A stretch of DNA of 61,755 nucleotides, the filler included, from Stramenopiles sp. TOSAG23-6 (lineage: Eukaryota), in assembly GCA_900128565.1 (NCBI GenBank). It is 18 parts of 18 records of this genome, joined end to end, with 100 filler letters (N's around TTAATTAATTAA, not from the genome) between each part and the next. Parts side by side here need not be neighbours in the genome. Positions count along the whole stretch, not along the records: positions 17,277 to 20,624 come from LT637547.1; 17 more parts are not named here. One strand, given 5' to 3'. A model generated the notes under the pieces. That model did not search any database. It worked only from the letters and a program-made list of their open reading frames with translations, and was not told the DNA's origin. The translations under genes were made by a program, and so were the position numbers. This document shows positions 12,373 to 47,989 of the stretch, one piece after another; position 1 is the first letter of the stretch; the number at the start of each line of letters is the position of its first letter.

Positions 12373-13670
12373 TTAAAATGAAAAGAAAGCATCTACTTCA
12401 TTGTCTTTTGCCCATAATTTTAAATCGGTCATGATTGGCTTTCCACTTTTACGCATTAAAGTTTGACAATCAAACCCACTTGCATTGAGTAATGTAGCAG
12501 CTTCCGTCACAGATATTTGTGTTTGTAATGCCTTCAACGTAAACATCAGAAGTTTAGCTGCTCCTCCATAAATTACATATTCAGAGTCAATATTAGATAG
12601 AACCCATTTAAANTCAATGATCTGTTTTGCAATTAAAGTTGAAACAAATTCTGAAAAAAATTGCGGAGCTTTAGGTACGTCAATAGATATATCTTCCATA
12701 TTTTTGAGTGTATCAAATATACCAGTTTGTATGTTTTCTGAGGAAACGTATTTTGAATTAAATAAGGACACAACAAGTTCAATAGTGCGTTCCCGGGTGA
12801 CGGTTTCTTTTGGTGAACTATTTACAACAATGTTTAAAGCTAGTGTTACAAATATTTCTCTTTTTGGAAAGTTCATTTCTTTCATACATTCTTCTGCTTC
12901 ATTCACATCGTGTTCGTGTATGTATTCTTTAATTGTAGCATTACATTTTTTTGTATATAATTCTTCAGTCATTGGAACTGATTTTGGAGATTTTGCTACA
13001 GATTTTGCTACATTTTCAGTTGGAGAAATGACCGAAGGTTTTGAACTACCACCAGGTTTGAAGGACAAATTCAAATTTGATGGAACAGATGATTTTGCAT
13101 TTTTGAAGGCTCCTCGTACATCCTGAATATTCTGTTTGTTAGATGAATGAACTTTAGGCATGATGGGAGCACGATTACGTGAATCGCGATTTCGGTCACG
13201 ACGACGATTACCTCCACGATAATTACTTTTACCTCGAGAATGACCCATAGTTTCACGCGATTTAGCAATCTCTTCCTCCGCGGCCTTTTGACGAACTTCT
13301 GCCTTCGTAGTCGCTTTGTCTACTTCACGTCTTGGAATCCACTTATTGGCGCGCAACGCAATCACATCCTGAACCATTTATTTTGGAAAAATATTTCAAA
13401 ATTTTCTTAAAAAAAAAAATTGTTAGGTACAAAATTTCCTATAAAAAAAAAAAAAAATCATACAAAAATAAATAAAACATACATAAAACGCGTCCGACTG
13501 CACAATTTTTTATGTCTTGCTAGAATAGCCAGACGTTCGAAATATCGATCAACATAAGCTTTTACTTTTTTGTGATCAAAAATTTTACCAATATTAGTTA
13601 ATAGTTTACATACTGACTCCACGTAATCTTCTTCAGGAGTCTGAACATCAGTGAGGAGCATCGTAACGCA
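12373..13670 (-). CDS. EIF4G: Translation initiation factor eIF4G (end of MIF4G + MA3 domain), 5'-truncated
   Basis: VESVCKLLTNIGK, SRTRFM|VQDVIALRANKWIPRR, TIKEYIHEHDVNEAEEC, DISIDVPKAP. Confidence 0.9.
13376..13482 (-). other. Non-canonical intron GT...AT (ends AAT)
   Basis: TTT AT|GTATGT...CCAAAATAAAT|G GTT CAG restores RFMVQDV (family RFMLQDV). Confidence 0.85.
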
Positions 13671-15611: not shown

Positions 15612-16082
15612 ATTTTCATTTTTTTCAAAATTTTAATTTCGAAAAAGTTTGAATTTTTGGAAATTTTTAACATTACTTTTTGTTGCGTACGAAATTTACT
15701 AGTACGACAAAAACAAATTGTAAAAAGAAATTATTTATGTACATTAGGTACAAAAAAATGTTACGAATTTCATAATACACACTACAACACTACAAATAGT
15801 CCATGTATTTTGGAAAATATTTCAAAAAAATCTAAAAAAAATTGTTAGGTACAAAATGTCGTCCGAAAAATGAATTCAAAATTGAAAAAAAAATATAATA
15901 CATACATTCACTTCTCTTAACATTAGATACAAAAGTAAGAGTAAAAAAAAGGTAAGAGTATAACCCTACTATAATATTTTTATTGAATTGAAAAAAAAAA
16001 TAAAAATAAAAAGCCTTATTGTAAATCATTTTTTCATTTTTTATCCATCAAAATTCAATTAAAATGTCCATTTCAAAACATT

Positions 16083-18479: not shown

Positions 18480-20482
18480 TTAGAAGCTGGAATTCCTTCT
18501 GCGTCTACTTATGTTTTTTCCAATTGCATGTATTGTGAAAAAAACAGGAAATAACAAAAAAAAATCGTTAGGTACGAAAGTTCGTACGAAAAAAATAATT
18601 TAGATAAAAATTGAAAAAAATAAAATAAAACGTACATGCACTTCAAATCCAATCGTTTCAACTTCTTCATGATTGAGTATATTTCTACCATCAAAAAGAA
18701 AAGCCGGTTTTTCCATACCATCATAAATTTTTTGGTAGTCAAATTCTTTAAAACAGTCCCATTCAGTTAAAATTGCAATTGCATGAGCTTTCTTCATCGT
18801 GTCATATGGTTTATGATTTTCCAAAGAAATCATCTTTCGTAAACCGGGTACCGTTTCTTCAGTGATACCACAGGTGTACTTTAACTCTTTGAACATTTCT
18901 TCTTCAGTCACTTGTGGGTCGTATACAGCAATAGTAGCTCTTTCGCCGAGTAATGCTTTAGCAATGTACGCAGCGGCTTGAAATGCAAAAAAATATTTGA
19001 AATTTTTTTTTTTTTTTTTTTGTTAGGTACGAAGTTTCCTATGAAAAAAAAAAGTCGACGTACAATAGCCATTATGTAAACATACAGTTTCTCGAGTATC
19101 GCCTGTATTTTTTTTAAATGCAAATCCAAGTAATGCAATTTTCTTTCCCGTAACTGTGTTAAACATACTTATTTTGTAAAAAATATTTTTTTTTTTTTTG
19201 AAAAAATATTTTTTTGTTAGGTACAAATTTTACTACAAAAAAAAATTTAAAAAAAAAAAAAAATTTGACATACTTTGAATAATTCTTTGAGAAAAACGAT
19301 TTTTTTGATAATTATTCATTGTAATCACAGATAGCCAATAGTCAGCAACTTCAGGTAAATTAAATGATTTACAAAGATATACCAAATTCAAAATATCTTT
19401 TTGAAAACAAGATCCTCCAAAGCCAACACTTGCTTGTAGAAAATTAGATGTATGAAAAAAAANATTTNAAAAAAAAAANTNGTTNGNTANGNTTGAATTC
19501 TCTAGGGTTAGGGTTAGATGTTGAGATTGAAAAAAAAATTTTAATTTTTTTTTTTAAATTAAAAATACGTCCAATACGTGGATCTGTGCCAATGGCATGA
19601 GCCACCTCAGCAACATTTGCATTCGTTTTTTCACACAATGCACTGATGGAGTTAATTGATGAGATCCGCTGTGCAAGGAATGCATTGGCCACTAATTTCG
19701 ATAATTCTGAAGACCATGGACTACAAAAAAAATATTTCAAAACAGTTTGAAATCGTTAGGTACGAAATTTCGTACGAAATGTTTTTTTTTGGAAAAAGGG
19801 GAAAATTAATGAATTATGAAAGCATACACAATGATGATGTAATTATTTTAGCTTTGGGTACCCAATGCGCATAAATAGCACACAACTTCGCTATCGCTTT
19901 TTGTCCGCTGGGTGTTCCCTGACCACCAATTAGAACTCGTGAAGGATTAGACAAATCGCGGATGGCAGTCCCTTCGGCTAAAAATTCAGGATTTGATAAA
20001 ATATCGAAAGTGACACCATTCTTACATGTTGATGATAAAATGCGTTGCAATGCGTAAGCTGTTTTTACTGGAACTGTAGATTTTTCAACCACAACTTTTG
20101 ACGTTGTTGATACTTCTGCAATTTTGCGGGCCGCTTTCTCCAGATTTGTAAGATTTGAAGCACAACCAGCGCCAATACCGTACGCTTTAGTCGGAGTATT
20201 CACACAAACAAAAATGATTTCTGCATCAGCAATCTCTTTATCAATATTTGTATTAAAAAAAAGGTTTTTTCCACGTACTTTTTGAATAATTTCCTCAAGG
20301 CCAGGTTCAAATATTGGAAGTTTTTCTGAGTTCCAACGATCAACCTGAGCTTGACTAATATCTACAACTGCGACGCGGATATGAGGGCATTTGTTTGCAA
20401 TCATTGCCATTGTTGGCCCTCCAACATACCCAGCTCCAATGCAGCATATACGCGTCGTAAACTGATTTGATGCGGATGACAT
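18480..20482 (-). CDS. UGDH: UDP-glucose 6-dehydrogenase, complete, 6 exons
   Basis: [69 protein letters not shown]; introns 19716-19827, 19448-19568, 19169-19273, 18978-19085, 18528-18635. Confidence 0.97.
18528..18635 (-). other. UGDH intron 5, GT...AT
   Basis: GTG CAT|GTACGT...CAATACAT|GCA ATT GGA = FEVHAIGK. Confidence 0.87.
18978..19085 (-). other. UGDH intron 4, GT...AA
   Basis: GAA ACT|GTATGT...GCATTTCAA|GCC GCT = RETAAAYIAK; using the AG one nt later frameshifts. Confidence 0.85.
19169..19273 (-). other. UGDH intron 3, GT...AA
   Basis: CAA A|GTATGT...CAAAATAA|GT ATG TTT = IQSMFNTV. Confidence 0.85.
19448..19568 (-). other. UGDH intron 2, GT...AT
   Basis: GGA C|GTATTT...CATACAT|CT AAT TTT = [12 protein letters not shown]; some Ns inside. 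Confidence 0.8.
19716..19827 (-). other. UGDH intron 1, GT...AT
   Basis: TTG T|GTATGC...GTAGTCCAT|GG TCT = LWSS; the AG 5 nt upstream is out of frame. Confidence 0.88.
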
Positions 20483-21012
20483 TATAAAACACTAAAATAT
20501 TTTCAACTTTCTTGTTCAACAAGGACTTGAAGTTGATTGGTTGTTGATTGATGATTTTTAAACGTAGGTGGTAATATTTTGTTTAAAATGTTTTCGGGTT
20601 AGGGTTAGGGTTTGAGAAATAAATNNNNNNNNNNNNNNNNNNNNNNNNNNNNNNNNNNNNNNNNNNNNTTAATTAATTAANNNNNNNNNNNNNNNNNNNN
20701 NNNNNNNNNNNNNNNNNNNNNNNNTTGTACCTAACAAAAATTAATTTTTTTTTTTGAAATATTTTTCCAAAATACATGTTTCCGTGAATTCTTTTTACTT
20801 ATTATTATGTTAATTATGTTTGTGTGTACTTTTTTATTTATGAAAATTGTACCAAAACCTTAGTATTATTTGATTTTCTTTACTAGAATGATGATAAATT
20901 GTTGTTTATTTTTGATATTTTGTGTTTACTTATAAAATTCTTAAAAATCTGTTCATTCAAATGTTCATTCAAATGTTCATTCAAAGGTTCATTCAAATGT
21001 TCATTCAAATAA

Positions 21013-22968: not shown

Positions 22969-23299
22969 ATGTATAGTGAAATATATATTAATGAAATAAA
23001 AGTTAGAAAAAAATATTATTTTGAAAAAAAAAATGGCTTAATTTCTAGGGTTAGGGAAAAATGGCTTAAATTCTAGGGTTAGGGTTTCGTAGGCTTAGGG
23101 TTGGGGGTTTTGAACACAGATTTGTTAGGTACAAAATTTACTATGAAAAAAAAAACGATATAAAAATTTGTTNNNNNNNNNNNNNNNNNNNNNNNNNNNN
23201 NNNNNNNNNNNNNNNNNNNNNNNNNNNNNNNNNNNNNNNNNNNNNNNNAAAAAAAAAACGATTTTTTTGGGGGGGTTAAAAAAAAAAAAAAAGACATGT

Positions 23300-23780: not shown

Positions 23781-24320
23781 ATAGTGAAACTTACATTGGT
23801 CTCCTCCATTGTTTTGGCTTTAGTTTAGAGTTTTGTCTACTACTCTTTACAGCCACTCAATCTTTTGCTGAGCAAAGATCCTATCCGATCTTCTTCTTAA
23901 CGGATTGGCACAAACCTGTCGACGATATTATCGAAATTTCAAAAATTAAAATATTTCGTGTCTTTTTATATTCTATTTATATTTATGTTGTTTTTGATTA
24001 TAAAAATGGACATTTGCAGGTATGTGATTAATGTCCTCCGGACGGGCTGCTCGCCGCAGGGGCTGTGNNNNNNNNNNNNNNNNNNNNNNNNNNNNNNNNN
24101 NNNNNNNNNNNTTAATTAATTAANNNNNNNNNNNNNNNNNNNNNNNNNNNNNNNNNNNNNNNNNNNNTAAATTTTTTTTCGTACGAAATTTTGTACCTAA
24201 CAATTTTTTCTAAAATTTTTTTGAAATATTTTTCCAAAATACAAATGTCATTTTACTACACGAAACAGGTAGTAAATATTCTGGTAAACTCAAATTTCGT
24301 TTTGGGATTTCTATTTGGCT

Positions 24321-25843
24321 TTATTTAGTATCAATTGTGTTACCAATGTTTTCATCATTTTGTTTTTGATGTTTTTGAAGATTTTTGATGTTTTTGATGA
24401 TTTTTGATGATTTTGATGATGATTTTTGATGATGTTTTTGATGATGGTTTTGATGATGATTTTGAAGATTTTGATGATGAAAAATTATAAAAATTAACTT
24501 TTGATGATGAGTTTTGTTTATCAAATAATAATTTCTTTTTTAAAATCTAAAACGTTTGGAATTTTTTCTCTTTTGATTTTTTGTCAAATGTAAAACATCT
24601 GAATATTTTTCTCTTTTGTCTCTTTTGATTCGTTTAAAATGATTTCTGTTCTTATTTACTGTTTGACTACCCAAATTAAGTACAGATTTTCGTAGGGTTT
24701 TTGGTGTGAGCTTTATTTATTTTGGAAAAATATTTATTAAAAAAAATCTAAAAAAAATTGTTAGGTACAAAATTTACTATGAAAAAAAAATTTAGGAAAA
24801 AAAATATTTCAATTTCAAATTTCAAAAAAAATTTTCAATTTCAAATTTCAAAAAAAAAATAAAATATACATCATATTTACACGGGAAAGTTTCAATGTGT
24901 TTTCTCTGATATGTTTTCTTAAACGATGACGACCAGCTATACATGAAATGTAGAAAAATATATATTTTTTTTTTTTATTCAAAATTGAAAAAAAAAAAAC
25001 CTACTAGGCATTAGATGTATAGGTAAAGGCAAAGAAGAAGTGGGAGTATTGTAATCATCATTTGTAGTCCTTGTCATTCTATTAATATTTGTGAATGTAA
25101 TACTTTGTTTTCTATCTTTTTGGTCTTTTTGGTCTTTTTCGTTCGAATGTTTTTTTGAGTCTGAAAAATAAAATGAATCTGGTGAAAGATCGGGTGTAGC
25201 TCGGTGTAGTTTTTTACGATGTGCTGTTTTTGGTCGTTTTTTCATTGAGGATGTATTTGTATATTTCATATATCTTGGTATATCCAAATCATTCACAGTA
25301 TTACTATGAGAATTTGTATTCTTTTGATTCCTACTAATAGAATTAATATTTTTATTATTTTGAGTGTTTTGTTCATTTGTAGGGTTAGTAGGGTAAGTAG
25401 GGTTAAGGTTGAGAGTAGTATTCAAATCTATATTTAAATCTTTACTAATATATTGTTGAAGAAATGTAGGTAACCTCCGCATGTATTCATCATTTGATCT
25501 TTGAATATTTTGTTTTGTTTTCTTTGTTTGTAAGCAAACTTCTGGTATTTTTATAGCAACATTTGAATATTTTTCAAATTTTTTTTGCACAGTTTTTGAT
25601 CTCGGTGACTTTTTTACTTCAAGTATTTTTAATAAGCTTTCGCAATCAATCATTCTATTCTTAAAAGTCATTTTACCATTTTTCCTATTTTTCCTATTTA
25701 ATTCATATTTTTCTCCAGTGTTTATTGATATGATATTATCAAATATAGTTCCTAAGAGCTCTCGATCGAAATTTCCAAAATAATGCATGCCTCTTACAAA
25801 ATCAATAAATGATATTTCGTCATTTAAATTATTATGCTTACTC
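24321..25843 (-). CDS. Hypothetical multi-exon protein fragment (EF-hand-like EISFIDFVRGM near its start)
   Basis: ORF 24979-25845 plus downstream exons linked by intron 24715-24869 (GT...AT); 3' end uncertain. Confidence 0.45.
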
Positions 25844-25954
25844 ATGGACTTTGGAAAAATATTTCAAAATTTTTCTAAAAAAAAAAATTGTTAGGTACAA
25901 AATTTTCAAAAATAAATAAATTCGATTTTTTTGTAAAAAAAAAATAAAACATAC

Positions 25955-26795
25955 ATTCACCAACATAGTTTTCATTTTCTATCATAGGTGGCTCCCACTC
26001 TCCATCATCATCATCATCCCAGTCTTCTGGTTTTTCTGCATCTGGATCTGGGATATTTTCAGGTTCATCATCAAAACCTTCTGGTTTTACATCAGTTGGA
26101 TCTGGAATGAGTTCCTCATGCACCCAATTTTTTGGTTCACTCTGCGTTGGATCTTTGATCATTTTTGGCTTGAGAAATGACCAATCGTCTTCAAGTCTTC
26201 CAGACTTTTCAAGTTCACCATCAATTTGCATTTCATACGTATTATCTTTACGTAGTATAAGAGTATACACGTGGGACAGTTGGTCCAATTCGCATCGAGG
26301 TTCGTTTTTAGTCTGTAAATTGTTTCCCTTGTAGGACAATATAATATGCGTTTTACGGGTGGAATGTCCACAAATATCAGGGCCAAACATTACATTATAT
26401 TTCGTGTCGCCACCAAAACTGTCCTGATCTATACCAGGTGGGAGAAGTTTAATGTAAGCACCACCACAATCAATGTTTTGCTCGTGTTTTACGGAATATT
26501 GAACAATAAGATCTTTATCCTTGTTATCAAACACTTCAGAAAAAATAGCAGATAAACCAAAGAACTTTGCATCATTTGTTGTTTGAATACCCCTGTCACT
26601 TTTCTTTCCATACCATTGACCAGCTGAAGAAGTCCACTTTCCCATCTGAGTTGAAGGTTTCCACTTCGTTGGTTGAACCCATCGGTCTTCCCATCCTTTC
26701 CCAAAACTTTCTTGGAAATAAATCTTGGCGTCCGAAACCTTTAACATTGACAATACTGTCAATATCGACACTGTCAGTGCAATGACACGTAACAT
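25955..26795 (-). CDS. CALR: Calreticulin, exon 1 only
   Basis: Signal peptide, VKHEQNIDCGGAYIKL, MFGPDICG, IPDPDAEKPEDWD, GEWEPPMI; donor GTATGT at 25954. Confidence 0.95.
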
Positions 26796-27291
26796 TGCTT
26801 TGATTTCTGCTTTAAATAAGTATTTACTCTTTATTAAATTTAAAGACGTACTATATCTGGGAGGGAACAAACTTTTTCTGGCCACTCATCATAAGTAGTA
26901 GTCATCTCTGATATGAGATCTGATCATTCAAAAATTGTAGGGTTAGGGCAAGTTACCGGGTATTTGTTGAACAGATGTCTGTAATTATTCATATTATTCA
27001 TAATATTATGGCGAATAATGTGAATAATTTCATAATGATTTTACAATAGAATAGATATTTGACAACAGAATGGATTAAAAAAAAATAATGATTATCTACT
27101 TTGAATAAACAAAAAAAAAAGAAAAAAATACTTTGAGTTGATTTTTATACAATTTAAATAAAAAGCATTTTCTGAAACATCATTGGCTTATTATGAATCA
27201 ACTTTTTGACTGTAGCTAGGATTCGGAAAAAACACATCATTATTGTTACATTTAAAAAAAATGTTTTTTCTTTCCATTATTGAAAACCTCT

Positions 27292-27508
27292 TCACGCATT
27301 GCTGTTCTCTTCTCCACCTCGTGAGCTTGAATATCTGTCATCCCGTCCATATTTGTCTTCAGATCGAGAGTTAGAATATCTGTCACCACCTCGTGAACTA
27401 GAATATCTGTCCCCTCCACGTGAACTAGAATATCTGTCACCTCCACGAGAATATCTGTCATCATATCTCGAGTTAGAATATCTGTCACCTCCACGAGAAT
27501 ATCTGTCA
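27292..27508 (-). CDS. C-terminus of an RGG/RS-repeat protein
   Basis: Repeats translate as DRYSSSRGG, ending EENSNA*. Confidence 0.55.
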
Positions 27509-28677: not shown

Positions 28678-30237
28678 TTATCTAAAAAACACGTCCAGTG
28701 CAGACCACATTTTTTGTGACTCTTTACCCTGTGGGTCAACCATATCAAATGTAAATGGCCCAATACCTCCCAAGTTTATGTATTTCTAAAAAAATAAAAA
28801 ATTTGAAATTCATTAGGTATGAAATTTCATACGAAAATATTAAAAAAAAAATGTTTTTTGTTTTACTATGAAAATTTCGTATGAAAGATAGTCAATCACA
28901 AAAAATGAAAACTGAAAAGGAAAGACCAAAACATACATTGAACGAGCAAACGAATATTTTAAAGCCAAACTTTCTGCATCATCAAACCAATATTGATACA
29001 CGGTACCATTCTCGACACTATTAAAGAATGGAGCTGACATAATTTATGAAAAANTATTTGAAAAATTTGATTTTTTTTGTTAGGTACAAAATTTACTACA
29101 AAAAAACAATTCGAAATTTCATGCTGAAATTGTACATATTATCGTCCCATTGTAGAGCAGTAGAAGCAACAGGGCTATGTTGTAGTTGGCGGATATCTTT
29201 GAATGAGATTTCGGACCCCGTGTATCATGAAAAAATATTTTTAAAATTTTGAATTTTTTTGAAATTTGTTAGGTACAAAATTTCATATAAAATAAAAATT
29301 AGCTACAACAATTCATATTGAAAACGTATGCCGCATCACTACATTTAGCTCCACGAAATGGTACAGGTTGAATGGGACAATATCGTGCTATTTGTTTTGT
29401 TCCTGGTAAACAGGCGTAGCGGTAACCATACCATGGAACACCTAATATTAGCTTTTTTTTCGGAACACCAATATCAAGAAATCTGTGAATCCCTTTCATA
29501 ACTGTGCTAATGGGTGAGTTAGCACTCGCTATACAAGCATTTGTTATTTGGCTTTGAACATCATAGTCCATAACGTATAGTAAGTCACTCGCCATAGCTA
29601 ATGATGTGTAATTATACGCCCGACCGTCAATATCATCAGGTGAATACGCAACACAAACACTCACTTGATAGGAAGGGTTTATTTTTTGTAGTTCCTTTCG
29701 TGTCAATGAAACAAGGGAAGAATATGTATGCATATCAGGTGTTCCTGCAAGAAGAGGGGATTCATAGTCAAACACCACACCATCAACAAAACGTGTAATT
29801 ATCTGAGTTATTACGGCTTTCACCCAAAGCAGACGGGCCGAAACTGTCTTTAATAAGCCAAGGTCAACGGAAGGAGCTGCGAGTAAAGCTCGGCTTCCAT
29901 GGGCGTGTGCTGCACAAGTCATTACATCGTTTTGGCTCCAGGCAACAGTAGATACATGTGTCCAATTCATTGCAGTTGGGGTCGAATTAGATGATAGGAA
30001 TCCGTATACCTCACCACTTGAGCGGACTGGTGGTCCAGAGATTGGTTTACACAGAGAATCATTTGCACAAGGACACCGTCTCCTTGGTCCAGGACGCCAA
30101 GTATCAGATAGGCTACGTGCGTAGTTAGATTCGTGACGCCATCGTGTACGGGAAAATCTCATTATATTCGCGCTACATGGGTCAAAAAACAACAGTAGCA
30201 AAATGATAGCGTTCGTAAACATTACAAAGCTGCACAT
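28678..30237 (-). CDS. CTBS: Di-N-acetylchitobiase (GH18), 4 exons
   Basis: CPCANDSLCKPI, VDGVVFDYE, DLLYVMDYD, LILGVPWYG, PFRGAKCSDAAG; introns 29220-29329, 29039-29135, 28778-28936. Confidence 0.9.
28778..28936 (-). other. Non-canonical intron GT...AT
   Basis: TCA AT|GTATGT...AAATACAT|A AAC TTG GGA = ARSINLGGIG. Confidence 0.82.
29039..29135 (-). other. Non-canonical intron GT...AT
   Basis: AAT AT|GTACAA...AAATTAT|G TCA GCT CCA = WDDNMSAPFFN. Confidence 0.82.
29220..29329 (-). other. Motif intron AT...AC
   Basis: GCG GC|ATACGT...TACCTAAC...CATGATACAC|G GGG TCC = CSDAAGSE. Confidence 0.78.
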
Positions 30238-35029: not shown

Positions 35030-36304
35030 ATGAAATGTATACTGTTATTTGCTCTTCCAATGTTTGTTGTGGCAAACATTCGCGTGGTTTCCTCTGTTTT
35101 GGAGAATCCCAGTTTTCACATTGATGCTTTGCTGCATCGTAATATGACAGACCCGCACTCACTTGCGGTTGAGCTTGCAACTTCTGAGCTTGCCGCTGTC
35201 GTCAAGTGGACAAGTAAATCATCCGTTGATTGGCCAAATAAAACGCATACATCAATTCCTGTGATCATGGCTCATGGTATGGGAGATTCATGTTTTAACT
35301 CTGGAATGAAACAAATCGCAAAGGATGTTGGTGCCCATGTAAATTCAGTTGCTGTTTGTGTACCAACTGGGTCTAACTGGCTCACGGACACTTTAAATGG
35401 ATTTTTCAAATCAATGGATAGTAGTGTTGATTATTTTGCAAAGCGTATTCAGTCCGACCATCGTCTCAAAGGTAGCACATTTGTAAATATGATTGGTTTT
35501 TCGCAGGGTAATTCAATTATTCGTGGATATATTCAAAAATATAATGGTGAACCGGGTTACCCTACAGTACGCACTTTTCTATCTGTACATGGTACTGTAC
35601 AGGGAGTAGGTGGGTTTCCACAATGTAATCCAGAGCATGGTATTATATCTTCATTTTGTCGTGTTCTTGATCGAATCCTTGGTGAATTTGCATACAACTC
35701 CCTTGTACAAAATATGTAAGTTTTATTTTTTTTCAATTTTTTATCTATAATTTTTTTTCGTACGAAATTTTGTACCTAACGATTTTAATGTTTGAAATAT
35801 TTTTTCATAATCTATTCTATTTCAAGCGGATTATTATCGAGATCCTTATAAAACACATGATAAAAGTTATTTAAAACATTCTCAATTAGCAAAATGGAAT
35901 AATGAAGGTAGTAATCCAGACCCAAAAATCAAAGAACGATTTTTAATGACTGATAAATTTGTGATGGTAAAAGCTCTCGGGGATACAATGGTATTTCCAA
36001 ATGAAGGTGTACATTCAAATTTTTCATTTTTTTTTTTTTAATTTGTACCTAACAAATTTTGAATCTAACAAATTTTAATTTTTTTTTGAAATATTTGTTT
36101 ACAATTTGTGAGCACTGGGGATGTTTTGCTGATAATTCATTTACAAAAATATTGAAAATGAACGAGACCATTTGGTACAAATCGGATTTGTTTGGATTAA
36201 AGACTGCAGATGATCAAGGTAAAATTTATTTTGAAGAAACTCCAGGGAACCATCTTCAATTTAGCGAGAAACAATTATTTGGTTGGTTAGATAAATACTT
36301 TTAA
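35030..36304 (+). CDS. PPT1: Palmitoyl-protein thioesterase 1, 3 exons
   Basis: PVIMAHGMGDSC, IGFSQG, QADYYRDP, DLFGLKT, GNHLQF; introns 35716-35815 and 36009-36109. Confidence 0.93.
35716..35815 (+). other. Non-canonical intron GT...AT
   Basis: AAT AT|GTAAGT...ATAATCTAT|T CTA TTT CAA = VQNILFQA. Confidence 0.83.
36009..36109 (+). other. Non-canonical intron GT...GT
   Basis: GAA GGT|GTACAT...ACAATTTGT|GAG CAC TGG = PNEGEHWG. The in-frame AG three nt later would drop the Glu, so it is not strictly excluded. Confidence 0.6.
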
Positions 36305-36733
36305 TACTTTTAATTGTTAACTACATTATCATAAAAGCCATATTGTTGATGGTGTTGCTCTTTGGAAATGTTCTTATTTAGATTATGTATTGGGGGTTAG
36401 GGTTAGGGTTCATGCAATTGTACTTGGCTAGGTGCATTGGTAGTACAATTTCAATGATTTTAGATATTATAATGTGAATAGATCTAGCCACAATAGTATT
36501 GTAATTTTTTATGAGTAGTATTCAAGACAATAAATCTTTAATTCAAGAAACAATGAAAAAATAATTATTAATTTATATTACACAGAAAAAAAACAGGTTT
36601 GTCCAATGAAACGTTAATTGTTTAAAATACGTAAAAAAGCTGTGAAGTCGTAACCGCTACCTCTATTTTTTATATTTGTGTAACATCTTCAGACTTGAGA
36701 CCATACATGCATTTATGATGCTTCCTTGAAATA

Positions 36734-37716
36734 ATGAGTCAGCATTCACTGAACGCATCAATATCAATGGCGGCAGAAATGCCAAACAAATTTAAGAGTG
36801 CAAAAGAAGTCCAACGTTCAATAAAGTCTATGCAAAAACAGTGTATCGACTACAAAATGAAGATTGAAAAAGCCCAAAATACAGAAAGTAGTTTAGATAA
36901 AGAAATAATAAAACTTAAAAAGATGCTAAGTAGCCACCGAGCTGCTATCGGTGGACCAACAGCACTAAGGGAAAATAATGCCGCCGTAAAACAACAACTA
37001 GATATTATGCAACGACGCTTAGTCCACGCGCAACGTCGGAAGCTCAACTGCAAAAGCGACTTGAAAACGTTGGTGAATTCCATCAATTCTATACGAGTGG
37101 ACAACGTGAGACAATTAAAGGGATTGGATGAATTGACCTGTGATCAGCTTAAGATTGATTCTGCGATATTACGTATAAATAAAAGCATTCGCCAACTAAA
37201 TTTACAGTGTGAAGAATGTGAAGCAGATGAACATGAACTATTGGAAAAGTCAGAAATATTTGCTGAAAAATCTAGGGCTCTTCTCAATAAAAAGGAATCA
37301 GAAGAAAAAGTTATCACTGTCTTAGAAGAGGATGTGGCTAAAAAAGAAGATTCTCCAGAACCAACTATAAGAATAGGATCATTATCTCTTGAACAAGAAA
37401 GAAGAATGCAAGATCAGATAGACAGTGCTGTGACCTGGAGAAAATCGACTAAAAAATCAGTTAAGGAAGCAAAGGAAAAGATTGAGACGTATGTTTTATT
37501 TTTTTTTTTAACAAAAAAATCGAATTTTTTTTCATAAGAAATTTTGTACCTAACAATTTTTTTTGAAATTTTTTTTGAAATATTTTTCCAAAATACACGT
37601 ATAGTGAATTGTTTAATCGCGTGAAAATTGTTTCTGGAGCATCGAATCTAAATGAGTTTATTGAAATGTACAAAAGTAGGGACGAGGAAAACTTTCGAAA
37701 ATTAGTCTTTGTAAAT
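36734..37716 (+). CDS. Outer dynein arm docking complex subunit (ODAD1/CCDC114/DC2-like), 3'-truncated; intron 37489-37598 (GT...AC)
   Basis: Coiled coil, then IETYSELFNRVKIVSGASNLNEFIEMYKSRDEENFRKLVFVN; GAG AC|GTATGT...AAATACAC|G TAT. Confidence 0.7.
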
Positions 37717-37964
37717 GTATGTTTTATTTTTTTTTCAAATTCGATTTTTTTTTTTATAAAAATTTTGTACCTAACAAATTTAAGTTTTTTTTTTTTCAAA
37801 NNNNNNNNNNNNNNNNNNNNNNNNNNNNNNNNNNNNNNNNNNNNTTAATTAATTAANNNNNNNNNNNNNNNNNNNNNNNNNNNNNNNNNNNNNNNNNNNN
37901 AAATCGTTAGGTACGAAATTTCGTATGAAAAAAAAATTAAATTAGAAATTCATATCAAACGTAC

Positions 37965-40900
37965 ATATTCACCAGTTTCCTCAACTTGCATTACTTTACA
38001 CATCATTTCAAAATTCATTTCACCTGATCCTGTAGCATCAAATTCTTGAAATTTTACAAATGCAAGTTCTAAAAAGTCTACATCTACATTATTATCTGAC
38101 TGGAATTTTCGCATAAGTTGTTTCTTTTCAGCTTTAACTACTGCCCGTTTTTGTTTATCAGATGTACCTTCGGCTTTTGTTAATAATGCACCAACTTTAT
38201 CGGCTGCAGGTGGACCAGCGATTGCAGGGGGTGGTGGAACTCCAGCAGCACCAAAGCTTGGAGGAGGTGGGATCCCACCAGGACCAAAACCAGCACCTGG
38301 ACCAACTGATGTTGAATTGAAGTCATGACGACTAGGATCAGGATGTTTGCATAATTTATAAAATTCTTCATATGAAACTTGTCCATCATGTATTGTGAAT
38401 TTTTTTTTTTTTTTGGTTTAAAAAAATCGTTAGGTACAACATTTCGTATGAAAAAATAATTAGATACAATATTGAAATGAAAACGTACACCATCCAAATC
38501 AACCATTTTAATCATTTCATTGATTTCTTCATCTGTGATCATTTCACCCATACATATGAGACAATGCCGCAACTCTGCCGCACCTATAAACATATTTTTA
38601 TCTAAATCTAAGAACCGAAATGCATCAAAAATTTCCTTATCTGAAAATTCATCTGATGCTGCAAAAGTACCCTCTTGAATATCAGCTTTCTTTTCCTCAA
38701 GTTCTTCTTCATTTCTTTCCGCTTGTAACTCTGCTTCTTCCTCCTCAGCTTCTTTATCGATTCTATCTCGTTCATCAAATGCATCAACAAGGGGTTGTCG
38801 TTGAGGAAACGCAGCACCAGCAGGAGCTGTAAAATCAAATCTAATTAATAATTCACCAGCTGTATCCTCCTGACCCCATCCTCTTTTCTTATTATAAATG
38901 GGTATCCATTCTTCTATATAGCCTTTTTTGAAATATGGAAGTAAACTGATTTTTTGTTTTCCTATTAAATCATCACTAGAGATCATATCTTCATCAAATA
39001 CTTCTAATATTAATTCATATTGATCAACAATCATAAATTCTACAACTTCATCCCACATTGGTTCAGTACCACCATCAGTATCCGTTTTTGTTCTCTTTAC
39101 TTCCTTGCCTGTGTTTGCACCCTCTAATGTAAATTTAATATAAGGATCTTGTCTACCTAATGAATCTGCATCAAATAGTTTACGTCCTTGTTTAGGAGTA
39201 ATTTTTAATTTACCTGCAGCAAAAAATTCAAATGCAAATTCAATTTCACCTGCATCTTTCTTTTTTTTATCAAATATTTTGATGAATTTCTTATCTCTTT
39301 GACCAACGTCCATTCTAGTATACGGAACTACAGATAATTCAGTTTCACCTATTAAATCATCCGCGCCCACATCTTCATCATAACATGAAAGTTTTAGTGG
39401 ATGTTGCCATATTGTATTATCAATATAAAACTCAAACTCTTCCTCCTTAAAGTATGGATTCTGTCCACCATCTTTTATAGTCTTTCCCCGACGTTTAAAT
39501 GTTTTATTTGAACCTAAAGAAAATTTCAAATATGGATCTTGCTTCCCCCAACTATCCATATTCTTAAGATTTCGACCATCAAATGCAGTTAGAACTAATG
39601 TACCTTGTTTTACTGGTTCAAACCATATTTCTAATTCTAATTCTCCAGCAGGTTGCTGTTGTCCTGATTTCTTATGAATCCAAGTTAAGTCATACCAGTC
39701 TCTTTCTGCTTCTAATCCTTCAAAAAAAGGTAACATTGAAATCGCCGTTTCCCCAAGTAAATCATTACTAAAGCTACCTTTATTCCAAACACGAAGTAAG
39801 AGAGGCATGTCATTGTCTTTTAACATATGCTCTGGATTAAATAAATTGAAAAAGCAAACTTGCTTTTTAAAATCAGGAAACATTGATTGACCTTTCACCA
39901 CTTTTGTTTTCTTTACAGGTCCTTTTTTCAAAGAGGAAACTTTGAACTCACAAAATATATTTAATTTTTCTTCTTTACCTACTTTTGTACTTCGACCAGC
40001 AGAATGTTTATGAATGTCTCGTCCTTGATGTAATCGTACCATAAAACGACCAGGTCGAGGGACCCAACTTTCTTGCATATCTGGTGGTGGTGGCGGAGGA
40101 GGTGGACCACCAACACCTGAAGCACCATCTGCTCCTGGTGGTGCAAATGAAGGAGGTGCCATAGTAGGTGGTGGCGGAATATCACTTGGTGGTGGTGGAA
40201 CACCAGGCGCAGCTGTTGGCGGCGCATCAGGTTTTGGTGGAGGCGAACCAGGCTTTGGTGGTGCACCAGGTGCACCTTCTTTTGCTGCTACAGTTGCTGC
40301 ATCTTCTGATGGCGGAGGTGCTGATGGTGCTGGTGGACGAGCTGGTGGTCCTGGTCTTGCTGGTGGTCCTGGTCTTGCCTGTGGTGGGAGCGGACGTCCA
40401 GCACCCACTTGGGCAGTCTTTGGAGCACTACCATCAGGGGGTCTTTTAGATGGTGGCGGTGCTCGTTTGGTTGGACTACTAGGAGCTTTTGGTTTTGGCC
40501 TTGGACCAGGTGGACCAGGTCGTTTGGGTTTTGCTTGTGCAGCTAAAGCTCTTGCATTTGGTTTAGGTGGCGGCCTTGATGGTGCAGGTCGCTTCGATTT
40601 TGCTACAATTTTAGCTGCCATTGGCGGTGCTCTACCCTGACTTTCTAATGGTGCCGCTCCCGCTGGTGCCTGACTTTGTGATGGCGGCGCAGTAACTGGT
40701 GCAGATATTCCAGGTGAAGCTCCAGGTGGTAAAGGTCGACCTATTGCAGCAGATGGTAATTTCATTGGTGCTGCACCCTGAGGCATTGAGGGTGGAGGTC
40801 TTCTGCCCGCCGGACTTCGAGGTGGAGGTCTCTTTGTTGGTATCGTAGTAGTAGTAGTTGTAGTTGTTGGTGCAGCTGAAGGTGCAGGTCGTTGAGGGGG

Positions 40901-41226
40901 GAGCGGTCTTTTACCTCCACCTGGCATCCCCAAAGGTGCAGGAGGCTTTGATGGTGGAGCTCGTTTAGTTGGTGGAGCTCGTTTGTTTGGTGGTGCTCTT
41001 TTAGTTGGTGGAGCACGACCAGCAGCTGCTACATTTGCATTACTGTCTGTTGAAGCACCCATCTTTCTATTTGCACCACCTGGCATTCCTAAAGGTGCGG
41101 GTGGTTTCGATGGTGGTGCTCGTTTTGTGCTTTGAACTTTTTCTAATGACATCGGAGGAGCTTTATTCGGTGGCGGCCTCTTGGTTGCAATTGTAGCTTG
41201 ACCAGGTATTGGTTTATTTGGTGGCG
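37965..41226 (-). CDS. Pro-rich, 3x C2 domain, EF-hand protein (partial); intron 38388-38488 (GT...AT)
   Basis: GKQDPY/GRQDPY C2 motifs; GGT|GTACGT...ATACAT|GAT GGA restores the EF loop DLDGDGQVSYEEF. Confidence 0.9.
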
Positions 41227-41390
41227 NNNNNNNNNNNNNNNNNNNNNNNNNNNNNNNNNNNNNNNNNNNNTTAATTAATTAANNNNNNNNNNNNNNNNNN
41301 NNNNNNNNNNNNNNNNNNNNNNNNNNAAATCGTTAGGTACGAAATTTCGTATGAAAAAAAAATTAAATTAGAAATTCATATCAAACGTAC

Positions 41391-44300
41391 ATATTCACCA
41401 GTTTCCTCAACTTGCATTACTTTACACATCATTTCAAAATTCATTTCACCTGATCCTGTAGCATCAAATTCTTGAAATTTTACAAATGCAAGTTCTAAAA
41501 AGTCTACATCTACATTATTATCTGACTGGAATTTTCGCATAAGTTGTTTCTTTTCAGCTTTAACTACTGCCCGTTTTTGTTTATCAGATGTACCTTCGGC
41601 TTTTGTTAATAATGCACCAACTTTATCGGCTGCAGGTGGACCAGCGATTGCAGGGGGTGGTGGAACTCCAGCAGCACCAAAGCTTGGAGGAGGTGGGATC
41701 CCACCAGGACCAAAACCAGCACCTGGACCAACTGATGTTGAATTGAAGTCATGACGACTAGGATCAGGATGTTTGCATAATTTATAAAATTCTTCATATG
41801 AAACTTGTCCATCATGTATTGTGAATTTTTTTTTTTTTTTGGTTTAAAAAAATCGTTAGGTACAACATTTCGTATGAAAAAATAATTAGATACAATATTG
41901 AAATGAAAACGTACACCATCCAAATCAACCATTTTAATCATTTCATTGATTTCTTCATCTGTGATCATTTCACCCATACATATGAGACAATGCCGCAACT
42001 CTGCCGCACCTATAAACATATTTTTATCTAAATCTAAGAACCGAAATGCATCAAAAATTTCCTTATCTGAAAATTCATCTGATGCTGCAAAAGTACCCTC
42101 TTGAATATCAGCTTTCTTTTCCTCAAGTTCTTCTTCATTTCTTTCCGCTTGTAACTCTGCTTCTTCCTCCTCAGCTTCTTTATCGATTCTATCTCGTTCA
42201 TCAAATGCATCAACAAGGGGTTGTCGTTGAGGAAACGCAGCACCAGCAGGAGCTGTAAAATCAAATCTAATTAATAATTCACCAGCTGTATCCTCCTGAC
42301 CCCATCCTCTTTTCTTATTATAAATGGGTATCCATTCTTCTATATAGCCTTTTTTGAAATATGGAAGTAAACTGATTTTTTGTTTTCCTATTAAATCATC
42401 ACTAGAGATCATATCTTCATCAAATACTTCTAATATTAATTCATATTGATCAACAATCATAAATTCTACAACTTCATCCCACATTGGTTCAGTACCACCA
42501 TCAGTATCCGTTTTTGTTCTCTTTACTTCCTTGCCTGTGTTTGCACCCTCTAATGTAAATTTAATATAAGGATCTTGTCTACCTAATGAATCTGCATCAA
42601 ATAGTTTACGTCCTTGTTTAGGAGTAATTTTTAATTTACCTGCAGCAAAAAATTCAAATGCAAATTCAATTTCACCTGCATCTTTCTTTTTTTTATCAAA
42701 TATTTTGATGAATTTCTTATCTCTTTGACCAACGTCCATTCTAGTATACGGAACTACAGATAATTCAGTTTCACCTATTAAATCATCCGCGCCCACATCT
42801 TCATCATAACATGAAAGTTTTAGTGGATGTTGCCATATTGTATTATCAATATAAAACTCAAACTCTTCCTCCTTAAAGTATGGATTCTGTCCACCATCTT
42901 TTATAGTCTTTCCCCGACGTTTAAATGTTTTATTTGAACCTAAAGAAAATTTCAAATATGGATCTTGCTTCCCCCAACTATCCATATTCTTAAGATTTCG
43001 ACCATCAAATGCAGTTAGAACTAATGTACCTTGTTTTACTGGTTCAAACCATATTTCTAATTCTAATTCTCCAGCAGGTTGCTGTTGTCCTGATTTCTTA
43101 TGAATCCAAGTTAAGTCATACCAGTCTCTTTCTGCTTCTAATCCTTCAAAAAAAGGTAACATTGAAATCGCCGTTTCCCCAAGTAAATCATTACTAAAGC
43201 TACCTTTATTCCAAACACGAAGTAAGAGAGGCATGTCATTGTCTTTTAACATATGCTCTGGATTAAATAAATTGAAAAAGCAAACTTGCTTTTTAAAATC
43301 AGGAAACATTGATTGACCTTTCACCACTTTTGTTTTCTTTACAGGTCCTTTTTTCAAAGAGGAAACTTTGAACTCACAAAATATATTTAATTTTTCTTCT
43401 TTACCTACTTTTGTACTTCGACCAGCAGAATGTTTATGAATGTCTCGTCCTTGATGTAATCGTACCATAAAACGACCAGGTCGAGGGACCCAACTTTCTT
43501 GCATATCTGGTGGTGGTGGCGGAGGAGGTGGACCACCAACACCTGAAGCACCATCTGCTCCTGGTGGTGCAAATGAAGGAGGTGCCATAGTAGGTGGTGG
43601 CGGAATATCACTTGGTGGTGGTGGAACACCAGGCGCAGCTGTTGGCGGCGCATCAGGTTTTGGTGGAGGCGAACCAGGCTTTGGTGGTGCACCAGGTGCA
43701 CCTTCTTTTGCTGCTACAGTTGCTGCATCTTCTGATGGCGGAGGTGCTGATGGTGCTGGTGGACGAGCTGGTGGTCCTGGTCTTGCTGGTGGTCCTGGTC
43801 TTGCCTGTGGTGGGAGCGGACGTCCAGCACCCACTTGGGCAGTCTTTGGAGCACTACCATCAGGGGGTCTTTTAGATGGTGGCGGTGCTCGTTTGGTTGG
43901 ACTACTAGGAGCTTTTGGTTTTGGCCTTGGACCAGGTGGACCAGGTCGTTTGGGTTTTGCTTGTGCAGCTAAAGCTCTTGCATTTGGTTTAGGTGGCGGC
44001 CTTGATGGTGCAGGTCGCTTCGATTTTGCTACAATTTTAGCTGCCATTGGCGGTGCTCTACCCTGACTTTCTAATGGTGCCGCTCCCGCTGGTGCCTGAC
44101 TTTGTGATGGCGGCGCAGTAACTGGTGCAGATATTCCAGGTGAAGCTCCAGGTGGTAAAGGTCGACCTATTGCAGCAGATGGTAATTTCATTGGTGCTGC
44201 ACCCTGAGGCATTGAGGGTGGAGGTCTTCTGCCCGCCGGACTTCGAGGTGGAGGTCTCTTTGTTGGTATCGTAGTAGTAGTAGTTGTAGTTGTTGGTGCA

Positions 44301-44652
44301 GCTGAAGGTGCAGGTCGTTGAGGGGGGAGCGGTCTTTTACCTCCACCTGGCATCCCCAAAGGTGCAGGAGGCTTTGATGGTGGAGCTCGTTTAGTTGGTG
44401 GAGCTCGTTTGTTTGGTGGTGCTCTTTTAGTTGGTGGAGCACGACCAGCAGCTGCTACATTTGCATTACTGTCTGTTGAAGCACCCATCTTTCTATTTGC
44501 ACCACCTGGCATTCCTAAAGGTGCGGGTGGTTTCGATGGTGGTGCTCGTTTTGTGCTTTGAACTTTTTCTAATGACATCGGAGGAGCTTTATTCGGTGGC
44601 GGCCTCTTGGTTGCAATTGTAGCTTGACCAGGTATTGGTTTATTTGGTGGCG
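41391..44652 (-). CDS. Duplicate copy of the C2/EF-hand gene contig
   Basis: Contig 41327-44652 appears identical to 37901-41226 (offset 3426). Confidence 0.9.
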
Positions 44653-45669
44653 NNNNNNNNNNNNNNNNNNNNNNNNNNNNNNNNNNNNNNNNNNNNTTAA
44701 TTAATTAANNNNNNNNNNNNNNNNNNNNNNNNNNNNNNNNNNNNNNNNNNNNAAAAAAAAAAATTTTTTAAAAATAAAAAAAAACAAAATATCATTTTTT
44801 TTTAATTGTTCGTTTTCATCATACATGTATAATTTTTTTTTTTTTTTTTTTTTTTTTTAGTTTTCATACGAAAATTTGTACCTAACAAAATTTTTGATTT
44901 TTTTTCAATATTTTTTCACACCATTGGCAATCATATTGTATACACTATACATTATTTATGTCATTTGGGCTGCTATTAATTGTCCCTGTCAGTGCTATTG
45001 TTGATTATTATGTACATAATATAGTGATGACTAATGTAGGTTCAAATGTTATAATTTGAAAAGAAACACTGAAAAAAAAAATTTTGATTTTTTTTGAAAA
45101 ATATTTTTTGAAAATATTTTTTGATTTTTTTTTTCAAAAATTTTTTTGAAATTTTTTAATTTTCTTTTTGGTTCTATTTTTCAAAAAATTTTCGTCACAT
45201 TTTTTATACATATTTGTTATGTAATATGTTATATTAATAATCCTATTATTATTTTTGTATGGACATTTCATACATGCTAATTTTATTCAAAACCAATGAC
45301 ACAATTTTTNTCCCNAANCCTAATCTAAAATTTTTATTTGAGTCTTTTGTATTTATTTTAATTTTTCTTAACCCTAACCCTAACGTTAAACCCTATATTT
45401 TTTATGNTACATTTGAGTCTGNTAGGAGTTCTTTTAATTATTTTAGGTTTACTTTTGTTTTTGTATTCAAATATTTTTGATCGTCAAATGCAGAATTCAT
45501 GATNGNGTCTAGATTTTTTTNAAGTACGCATATATATATATAGAATAAAAACACACCAAAAAATATTGTCAATTTTTTTTTTAAATTTTTGTTAGGTACG
45601 CATCGAGTCAATCAATTAAAAAAAAGAAATTCAGAATTTACCCATTTAATTTTTATTTTACCATGTTTA

Positions 45670-47078: not shown

Positions 47079-47989
47079 ATGTCAGTGGTACATATATATN
47101 ACATGCTTATCATTCTCATAGCAGTGACTACTCTACAAATACAGTGTACGACAGTTCTTGGGGATAATGTTAAAGCCACAGCTCAGCCAATTCAACGACA
47201 AGAGCAACGTGATGGATCTACTATAGAACAACTACAACACAGAGAGATATCTACAACAATACTCAAGGATGCATCAAAACCTTCATTTAATGCTACAGCA
47301 ATACCATCACCACTACTAACAACAACAGCTAATAGTTCTCTTTTCTTTCAAAACATCTCCAAACTATTACAAGNAAGAAAATTCACGGAAACNATGCAAT
47401 TACTTAGTCAAGTCATTCACTCAGAAACACCAAAACAAACAAAAAAAACTTCTACTTTTTTGATACATTCGAAACTTCGACGAGGAGCACTTTCATTACG
47501 AGGTAGGCTACATGTTGTATTTGGCGATTTTTCATCNGCTTTAGATGATTTTGTTAATGCAGGTGAAAATAATGATTTAATTTGGAAAGTATGTGTTCAT
47601 TTTTTTTTTTTTTTTAATTCGTACGAAATTTTGTACCTAAACAATTTTTTTTTTTTTTTAATTTTTTAAATTCGTACGAAATTTTGTACCTAAATATTTT
47701 CATTTTTTTTAAAATTTTTTTTTCACAATACATACAAAACAAAAACGTAAAGATTTCGTGGATGCAAAAGTAAAATTTTCTGAAGAAAGATATCCAGAGG
47801 CATGGCATGCCTTGAGTAAATTAATAAAAGCTGGAAGCATTGAAAGTTCAATTTTATATCTTAAAAGGGCTGAAGCTGCAAGATTAGATGGTGCATACAC
47901 AGCTGCTCGAGGTGATGCAATTCGCGTTTTACAAAATGATCGATTTAATGCTGATGCGGCAGCTATTGTAGCAGATAGTTTTTTTTCCG
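47079..47989 (+). CDS. Signal-peptide TPR protein (possibly DNAJC3-like), 3'-truncated; intron 47589-47733 (GT...AT)
   Basis: TPR-like helices (RGRLHVVFGDFSxALDDF; YLKRAEAARLDGAYTAARGDA); TGG AAA|GTATGT...ATACAT|ACA in frame. Confidence 0.6.

Follow-up and report, generated by a model that had tools for sequence, protein, structure and literature searches.

We found that the genes on a stretch of DNA from Stramenopiles sp. TOSAG23-6 (GCA_900128565.1) are interrupted by a family of near-identical short introns that are removed from a 5' GT to a 3' end that is not AG, but mostly AT. A 25-nucleotide (nt) motif containing the box TACCTAA, described in an earlier note on this DNA, is probably the middle block of these A+T-rich spliceosomal introns, which would have spread like miniature transposons (as "introners") through the genes of a marine stramenopile of the MAST-3 type (MAST, marine stramenopile), with the box serving as their branch site. 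GT...AG is among the most constant rules of eukaryotic gene structure, and to our knowledge only a few lineages break it wholesale (Fritillaria, Amoebophrya, and euglenids). A textbook 5' end and a branch-like box in an intron without AG would disentangle what each of the two splicing steps needs, and such a family would offer a simple natural system for studying how the 3' site is chosen.

The window, that is, the whole stretch analyzed, comprises 61,755 bases in approximately 18 contigs of about 3.3 kb each, sorted by falling length and joined by 44 N, TTAATTAATTAA, and another 44 N (3360-3459, then every ~3.4 kb). Many contigs begin or stop inside the intron repeat. Two adjoining contigs (37901-41226 and 41327-44652) are identical at 3326/3326 bases, and their contents are counted double unless one is removed.

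TACCTAA has 58 exact matches on both strands of the window, compared with 7.22 ± 2.68 expected (shuffle maximum 15; 0/100 shuffles reach 58), in agreement with the roughly 50 copies claimed in the earlier note. The non-redundant number is 55, as three matches fall in the duplicated contig. Intron-type context was recognized for 40 of the 55, with ...AAATTTYG in front of the box and a position between a GTAYGT start and the common 3' block, or in an intron cut by a contig end. Another seven, about as many as chance would give, lie in long open reading frames (ORFs) or elsewhere, and eight have an ambiguous context. In all 23 complete delimited introns, the box lies on the coding strand of both flanking ORFs. 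Alignment of 39 box copies returned the previously proposed consensus, nTTTTTTTTTCnTAnGAAATTTTGTACCTAACA. The data support the description of a yeast-like branch-site motif that lies inside introns, is strand-specific, contains one extra C, and has a conserved extension on its upstream side. The exact 7-mer was kept in 27/27 sense copies selected by the upstream flank alone (counted from the match table). The G directly before the box carries 2.8 bits and the neighbouring columns of the box 0.3-1.2 bits; the upstream extension amounts to ~10 bits of conservation in all, with columns 12, 15, and 16 near the box varying at 40-60%. A box was present within 70 nt upstream of 21/21 intronic matches to the 3' block. 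In the 23 delimited introns, the distance from the end of the box to the 3' end of the intron is 34-61 nt (median 41). Most box-less introns hold near variants at the same place (CACCTAAC, ATCTAAC, GTACGTAAC, and GTGCCTAAC). The box also has six single matches in viral contigs (L004-L009), one copy each, which is about the chance number.

Three blocks are common to 25 aligned complete introns: GTAYGTTTT at the 5' end, the box, and TTGAAATATTTTTYC-AMAATACAT at the 3' end. These introns are 97-169 nt long (median 109) and 83% A+T. The box, in the form (T)nCRTAVKAAATTTYG-TACCTAAC, lies ~50-60 nt after the 5' end, and the 3' block ~41 nt beyond it. The 5' GT is fixed in 23/23 introns, as part of GTATGT, GTACGT, or GTAAGT followed by T. 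The host genes are unrelated and include those for UDP-glucose 6-dehydrogenase (UGDH), thioesterase, chitinase, EF-hand/C2, and COMM-domain proteins. Full-length identity between introns of such genes reaches 92%, and 25 pairs are at or above 78%; in the shuffled control, the median was 60% and the highest value 71%. The youngest subfamily, represented by the copy at 2267..2376 (+), has 83-92% full-length identity among copies in unrelated genes and includes 37489-37598 (+), 58620-58728 (-), 25844-25954 (-), 50153-50264 (+), 13376-13482 (-), 55629-55741 (-), and 15803-15905 (-). Moreover, in 18 of 23 cases the intron's final 2 nt are the same as the 2 nt that precede its GT (AT in 15; AA, GT, and AC in one each), against a mean of 12.7 matches when flanks and ends were randomly re-paired (p=0.0003). 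Taken alone, the three matches other than AT (AA, GT, and AC, each repeating its own 5' flank) gave p=0.0017. Many near-identical introns with a 2-nt repeat at their ends constitute an introner-like family, and the simplest reading of the repeat is a target duplication. On that reading, the last two bases of an intron vary with its flank because the intron consists of the element plus one copy of its target. In one DNA run (X3), three element-bearing bins had summed depths of 13,096-106,171, versus ~2-8 over the exon stretch 25960-27415, a contrast that is consistent with many copies of the element but is not a copy number.

Some members of the family depart from the common layout. Introns 47589-47733 (+) and 49241-49409 (-) each contain two boxes, 53 and 80 nt apart, a pattern suggestive of a duplicated middle part or of one element nested in another. 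Introns 9829-9995 (-) and 24715-24869 (-) are longer, with additional short repeats of the GAAATTTGAAATTGAAA type in the stretch that separates the 5' end from the box; in one of the two, ACCTAAAA repeats directly follow the box. A tandem array at 1-230 has a period of ~13 nt, and its TTTTTTGAAATAT-like unit corresponds to the start of the introns' 3' block.

The 3' ends were read from 27 delimited introns, comprising 23 curated introns, the box-less introns 19448-19568 and 24943-25004, the partial intron ending at 24244, and the intron starting at 5265 (+) taken at its consensus end. With the 5' end read as GT, they end in AT (22), AA (3), GT (1), and AC (1), and AG is obligatory in none. Protein homology fixes eight junctions (five in UGDH, two in the thioesterase gene, and one in an EF-hand gene), and a 5' GT is the only reading common to all homology-defined junctions. 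The UGDH gene (18528-20491) was identified by Pfam domains PF03721 and PF03720 and by homologs, and its junctions were placed by tblastn with the relatives P0008 and P0009. All five of its introns lie on the minus strand. The first, 19716..19827 (112 nt, GTATGC...GTCCAT), carries the first-noted box, TACCTAAC, at 19755..19762; only GT..AT, TG..CA, or TA..TG restore the exact protein letters, and an AG 5 nt upstream is out of frame. Intron 19448..19568 (GT...CATACAT) lacks the exact box and contains ATCTAAC and CCCTAAC; its junction, RIG-P-NFLQAS, gives GT..AT, with 62 and 70 codons in frame on either side. Intron 19169..19273 (GTATGT...AATAA, with box) is bounded by an AA direct repeat, and its junction, QSM|FNTV, gives GT..AA, or TA-AG and other pairs by sliding along a 7-nt repeat. 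The junction of 18978..19085 (with box), DTRET|AAAY, permits only GT-AA or TA-AG. Lastly, 18528..18635 (GTACGT...CAATACAT, with box) has the junction GFEVH|AIGK, matched by the C-terminus of P0008, and gives GT..AT.

The other homology-defined junctions gave comparable results. In the thioesterase gene, junctions were fixed by homologs P0122, P0124, and P0127. The box-bearing intron 35716..35815 (+; GTAAGT...AATCTAT) has the junction VQN-I-LFQADYY and gives GT..AT, and a second box-bearing intron, 36009..36109 (+; GTACAT...AATTTGT), has the junction PNEG|EHWG and gives GT-GT; use of an in-frame AG 3 nt further downstream would delete the conserved E. The box-bearing intron 38388..38488 (-) interrupts an EF-hand loop (DLDG|DGQVSYEE) and permits GT-AT or TG-CA only, with 912 and 145 codons in frame. 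In the chitinase gene, intron 28778..28936 (-) has the box TACCTAAT and ends in ...AAATACAT, and an AG 8 nt upstream would give a stop.

Reading frames point in the same direction. The frame is kept at the consensus end in 15 of the 17 introns with informative ORFs on both sides, where chance would give one third, and when five shifts were compared for each intron, the consensus end alone came out best in 17/23. An in-frame AG alternative exists in just 4/23, one of them contradicted by homology, and no AG occurs up to 15 nt past the end in 5/23. A shift of all introns by 2 nt to the left, which would make AT...AC the common type, was considered and rejected: it would replace the conserved T of DTRET, and it is contradicted by the RNA junction described below.

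Independent support, modest in amount, came from RNA. Contigs of four runs (three metatranscriptomes from three studies and one metagenome) were aligned to 24168-27508. In a 212-nt contig of a poly(A) run (X9, record 27), position 25002 is joined to 24939, with 92 and 70 letters matched on either side, such that the 62-nt intron 24943..25004 (-; GTAGGT...ACATTTCAT) is spliced out; besides the GT reading, three other non-AG pairs fit this junction. The same contig matches as far as 24870, the final base of the exon; next comes the GTATAT of the box-bearing intron 24715..24869 (-; GTATAT...AAATAAAT). At the start of the aligned region lies the 3' part of a further box-bearing intron, cut by the contig start (24168..24244, +; ending ...CCAAAATACAA). 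Two contigs (X9 record 25 and X10 record 3) both begin matching at 24245, exactly 11 nt beyond the CC in this intron's 3' block, and carry on for 146 and 100 letters that are absent from this genomic contig; there is no AG between the box and 24267. RNA evidence thus comprises one full junction and two single boundaries. Among the matches listed, no RNA contig bridges the box-bearing introns 25844-25954 or 24715-24869, which is not in itself evidence.

Three further features of the junctions were observed. Introns 8702-8812 (+) and 29221-29328 (-) start with AT-ACGTT... in place of the usual ATGTACGTTTT with its GT, and their last bases are ...ATACAC; they may be AT...AC introns or GT...AC introns with a weak donor, with a possible covariation of first and last bases (G...T versus A...C). 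The exon 24245-24328 (+), which follows the intron ending at 24244, has an ATG start, and a stop closes its frame after just 27 residues, the tail of which is hydrophobic. AT|G is also the reading at many of the window's junctions, giving ATG at the joint in the spliced mRNA.

The yeast-type branch box is UACUAAC, and the branch-binding stretch of the standard U2 small nuclear RNA (snRNA) is GUAGUA. Like the yeast-type site, the box described here has seven of eight bases in the same order, is intronic and in sense orientation, lies tens of nucleotides before the 3' end, and accompanies a GTATGT-type 5' end. Unlike it, the box has an extra C, which would be bulged or would need an extra G in U2, its upstream extension is conserved, and the acceptor is not the first AG downstream. 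Given this resemblance and the conservation of the box, we consider a branch-site role probable, although by no means assured. In that role, GTACCTAA(C) would be related to the yeast-type box and recognized by a U2-type snRNA, and the putative branch point would be the second A of its AA pair. The position of the 3' cut may depend on the 12-nt 3' motif and not on a dinucleotide, given that 3-7 other AT dinucleotides are skipped on the way from the box to the true end. Meanwhile, the 15 nt upstream of the box may be kept largely by common descent together with weak constraint (~10 bits).

A number of observations weigh against this interpretation. The RNA-confirmed intron 24943-25004 has neither a box nor CTAAC, and the box is therefore not indispensable. 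The last C of the box is conserved at 57% when copies are weighted, and pairing with a standard U2 would require a bulged C. An A stands at -7 from the 3' end in 23/23 introns; because it is invariant, the branch could lie in the 3' block instead. Terminal inverted repeats, as might accompany a mobile element, reach 4-6 nt at most (GTAT/ATAC plus the AT repeat) and occur in the GTATGT subfamily only. For two introns, the consensus end breaks the reading frame. One of them, 25844-25954 in the calreticulin gene, is on a contig that is probably chimeric inside the repeat, because the ORF behind it is without a calreticulin domain and has its own ATG start. The other, the COMM-domain-gene intron 5265..5426 (+) with the variant box CACCTAAC, is in frame only when its end is moved 2 nt upstream (...AATAC) or 1 nt downstream (...ACATG). 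The small amount of RNA evidence is a further reservation, and all results come from 61 kb of fragmentary assembly. Searches for a matching snRNA also gave no candidate: an Rfam search of the window returned no match at gathering scores nor at E ≤ 1, and a 20-nt probe for an extra-G U2 had three exact chance matches in metagenome contigs (L001-L003), none of them called U2 by Rfam and all flanked by unrelated coding-like sequence, a result that is uninformative on the organism's own U2.

On a broader proposition, that the MAST-3-type lineage has abandoned the AG rule altogether, we are evenly divided. In that case, most or all of its introns would be cut from GTAYGT to AT (or AA, AC, or GT), the end would be picked by the 12-nt motif with the last bases being the introner's copy of its target, and a co-evolved snRNA for GTACCTAA would be expected together with a diverged or lost U2AF-type AG reader.

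Alternative roles for the motif were weighed against a simple branch site. The whole extended motif could pair with a co-evolved snRNA, either a U2 with an extra G and an altered downstream stretch or a transformed U12-like system that is now the main one. The ~10 bits of conservation upstream of the core are in keeping with this, as are the fit of the box to the U12 branch consensus (6/8), the fit of GTATGTTT to the U12 5' consensus (6/8), and the two introns readable as AT...AC (8760, +; 29269, -). Minor introns typically have flexible 3' terminal bases, and the stramenopile Blastocystis has hundreds of them, mostly AT-AC (PMC10639083). However, the upstream columns that would pair (12, 15, and 16) are the most variable, the 5' end is without the CC of the minor consensus, and the box is far beyond U12-type spacing at 34-61 nt from the 3' end, making this explanation unlikely. 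A small chance also remains with the reverse arrangement, in which TACCTAAC is not the branch site, the 3' block (TYCAMAATACAT) specifies both branch point and 3' site, comparable to the fused motifs of Giardia and Trichomonas, and the box is a relic or a propagation signal (e.g., a transposase or replication site). The 3' block is notably rigid, with A at -7 in every curated intron, A at -9 in 19/23, and AAT at -7..-5 nearly fixed; it is present in the RNA-confirmed 62-nt intron that has no box, and GAAATATTTTT-type units also build the tandem array at 1-230. Yet the exact 7-mer persists in 27/27 flank-selected copies while the surrounding element drifts, the box resembles the universal branch consensus, box-less introns mostly hold CTAAC-like variants at the same place, and a branch 7 nt from the acceptor would be unusually close. 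We find it scarcely credible that the elements are unspliced and are either excised at the DNA level, like the internal eliminated sequences of ciliates, or artefacts of assembly or amplification. A 2-nt direct repeat does also mark DNA excision, and it is often within the repeat that contigs break off or may be chimeric. Nonetheless, the elements have GTAYGT ends and a branch-like box, all in sense orientation; a separate seawater metagenome (X3) contains the same stretches with introns included; and no DNA contig cleanly without an intron was found among the matches listed.

The earlier note had also drawn attention to self-complementarity upstream of the box, and proposed either a hairpin beside CTAAC or extended pairing with a variant U2-like snRNA. 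Both palindromes are present as described: the 16-nt GTACGAAATTTCGTAC at 19760-19775, whose 3' arm shares three bases with the start of the box, and the doubly substituted GTATGAAATTTCATAC at 28817-28832 in the chitinase-gene intron. As RNA, GTACGAAATTTCGTAC folds at -6.5 kcal/mol (z -3.2), and within the CGTACG subfamily the folding energies range from -4.4 to -6.5 kcal/mol, with z from -2.4 to -3.9. In contrast, the CATAGTAAA, TATAGGAAA, and CATACGAAATG copies are unfolded (z 0.2 to 0.6; 0 to -1.6 kcal/mol for CATAGTAAA and TATAGGAAA), and three of the six copies folded in silico form no helix. Across 39 aligned copies, the six-pair helix has standard pairs in 72.8% of cells, compared with 72.4% after shuffling (180/500 shuffles as high), and sliding the helix partner by two columns (-2) gives 73.7%. 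The outer G-C pair is present in 15/38 distinct copies and the C-G pair in 17/38, with 18 unpaired. The pair-keeping double substitution at 28817-28832 does exist, but it is a single case: one cell has changes on both sides versus 0.7 expected by chance (290/500 shuffles reach 1), and the proposed covariation check, run as this shuffle test, accordingly gave no excess of double changes. Because only CGTACG copies fold, the palindrome is a trait of one subfamily, and a conserved hairpin is absent. A helix would, in addition, hide the first bases of the box. Despite the folding of CGTACG copies and the one double substitution, we therefore regard an RNA hairpin adjoining the branch site as a very improbable functional unit. 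The palindrome may instead be a by-product of self-complementary GTAC flanked by runs of A and T in one subfamily, and TTTCGTAC-GAAA-TTTYGTAC-CTAAC could be read as a partial tandem repeat of the box region. End-to-end pairing of the introns (ATGTAT with ATACAT) was likewise rejected as a conserved helix: introns with GTACGT donors retain the same 3' end, with no compensation.

Unusual splice signals are known from several other protists. Giardia and Trichomonas have fused branch/acceptor motifs, and Physarum has undergone an expansion of U12-type (minor) introns. The U12-type 5' motif is RTATCCTT, and its branch motif lies ~10-20 nt from the 3' end. The introns described here are unlike that type both in their 5' motif, which is without CC, and in their branch-to-3' spacing of 34-61 nt, and nearly all introns of the window belong to this one type. 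They resemble U12-type introns in having long, rigid 5' and branch motifs with tolerant 3' ends; minor introns are described as tolerating AT, AA, and AC 3' ends, with hundreds in Blastocystis, likewise a stramenopile (PMC10639083).

Introners show a close likeness. Families in Micromonas, Aureococcus, and other surveyed lineages have target duplications (PMC9860276, PMC11282704), and the Chrysochromulina type brings its own 5' splice site and takes the 3' splice site from the target (PMC9860276). Many near-identical short introns in unrelated genes and short end repeats (PMC9860276, PMC11282704), as well as an element that supplies one splice site while the other lies in the duplicated target (PMC9860276), are thus shared features. 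However, the introners described in the available portions of these papers use canonical GY-AG sites (PMC9860276, PMC11282704), whereas here the duplicated target is 2 nt long and mostly AT, leading to a 3' end that is not AG, and inverted termini do not exceed 4-6 nt. MAST lineages are mentioned 0 times in the main text of the introner survey (PMC9860276).

Two of the lineages that depart from GT...AG offer further comparisons. Amoebophrya is, like the organism here, a marine protist with repeated introns and direct repeats at exon/intron borders; more than 60% of its introns are non-canonical, and a miniature inverted-repeat transposable element (MITE)-like origin has been proposed (PMC7789003). 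Its introns lack constant dinucleotides at either terminus, inverted repeats of 8-20 nt pair the two ends into a hairpin, direct repeats measure 3-5 nt, and no U1 was found (PMC7789003). The introns here instead retain a 5' GTAYGT, a yeast-like box, and a fixed 3' motif without long end pairing; 5' GT is present in 23/23, and end complementarity is at most 6 nt. In the tunicate Fritillaria borealis, most introns escape GT/AG, are MITE-derived, and end in A followed by C or T (PMC13326754, PMC11282704). The commonest types are AG-AC and AG-AT, and non-AG ends are recognized by diverged U2AF paralogs (PMC13326754). Fritillaria differs in being an animal, in its also non-canonical 5' end, and in that no conserved internal box is described in the portions consulted (PMC13326754, PMC11282704). 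By analogy, its diverged U2AF paralogs are a plausible model for how AT ends might be read here. In the papers searched, we found no description of the combination of GTAYGT, a branch-like box, a 12-nt acceptor motif, a 2-nt duplication, and AT ends, and the papers on MAST that were consulted do not discuss intron boundaries in their main text.

The window has a G+C content of 24-44% and long ORFs in the standard code. Encoded proteins include UGDH, a calreticulin-family protein, palmitoyl-protein thioesterase (PPT1), a GH18 chitinase, and C2/EF-hand, COMM-domain, thioredoxin, and PP1-like phosphatase proteins. The top database match of a UGDH exon is P0005 (91% identity), followed by P0008 and P0009 (74-75%). 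As the EukProt label of P0005 begins with GSMAST32, the label suggests that the host is a MAST-3-type marine stramenopile. Parts of the same stretch are also contained in seawater metagenomes and metatranscriptomes.

Gene finders that require AG would mis-build such genes. Compared with P0008 and P0009, the UGDH model P0005 has extra residues at three junctions (FP, I, and VS), omits two short segments within the protein, and continues at its end into intron sequence. P0241, a model of the COMM-domain gene (4698-5327), also reads into its intron. Judged by sequence comparison, both models look mis-built, with errors of the kind expected if AG acceptors had been forced. For MAST-3 single-cell assemblies of 19-21 Mb, just 2,694-3,289 genes were predicted (PMC5778133). 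If the same intron type occurs in those assemblies, functional conclusions drawn from "missing" genes would need rechecking.

Short telomere-like runs of CCCTAA/TTAGGG are scattered inside contigs, several of them in introns (6428-6471, 19505-19530, 20599-20610, 23050-23120, 36397-36408, 45372-45383, 48379-48390, 49008-49019, 49617-49628, 50783-50800, and 57978-57989). On the sense strand, CCCTAAC includes the branch-like CTAAC core, as in the box-less UGDH intron.

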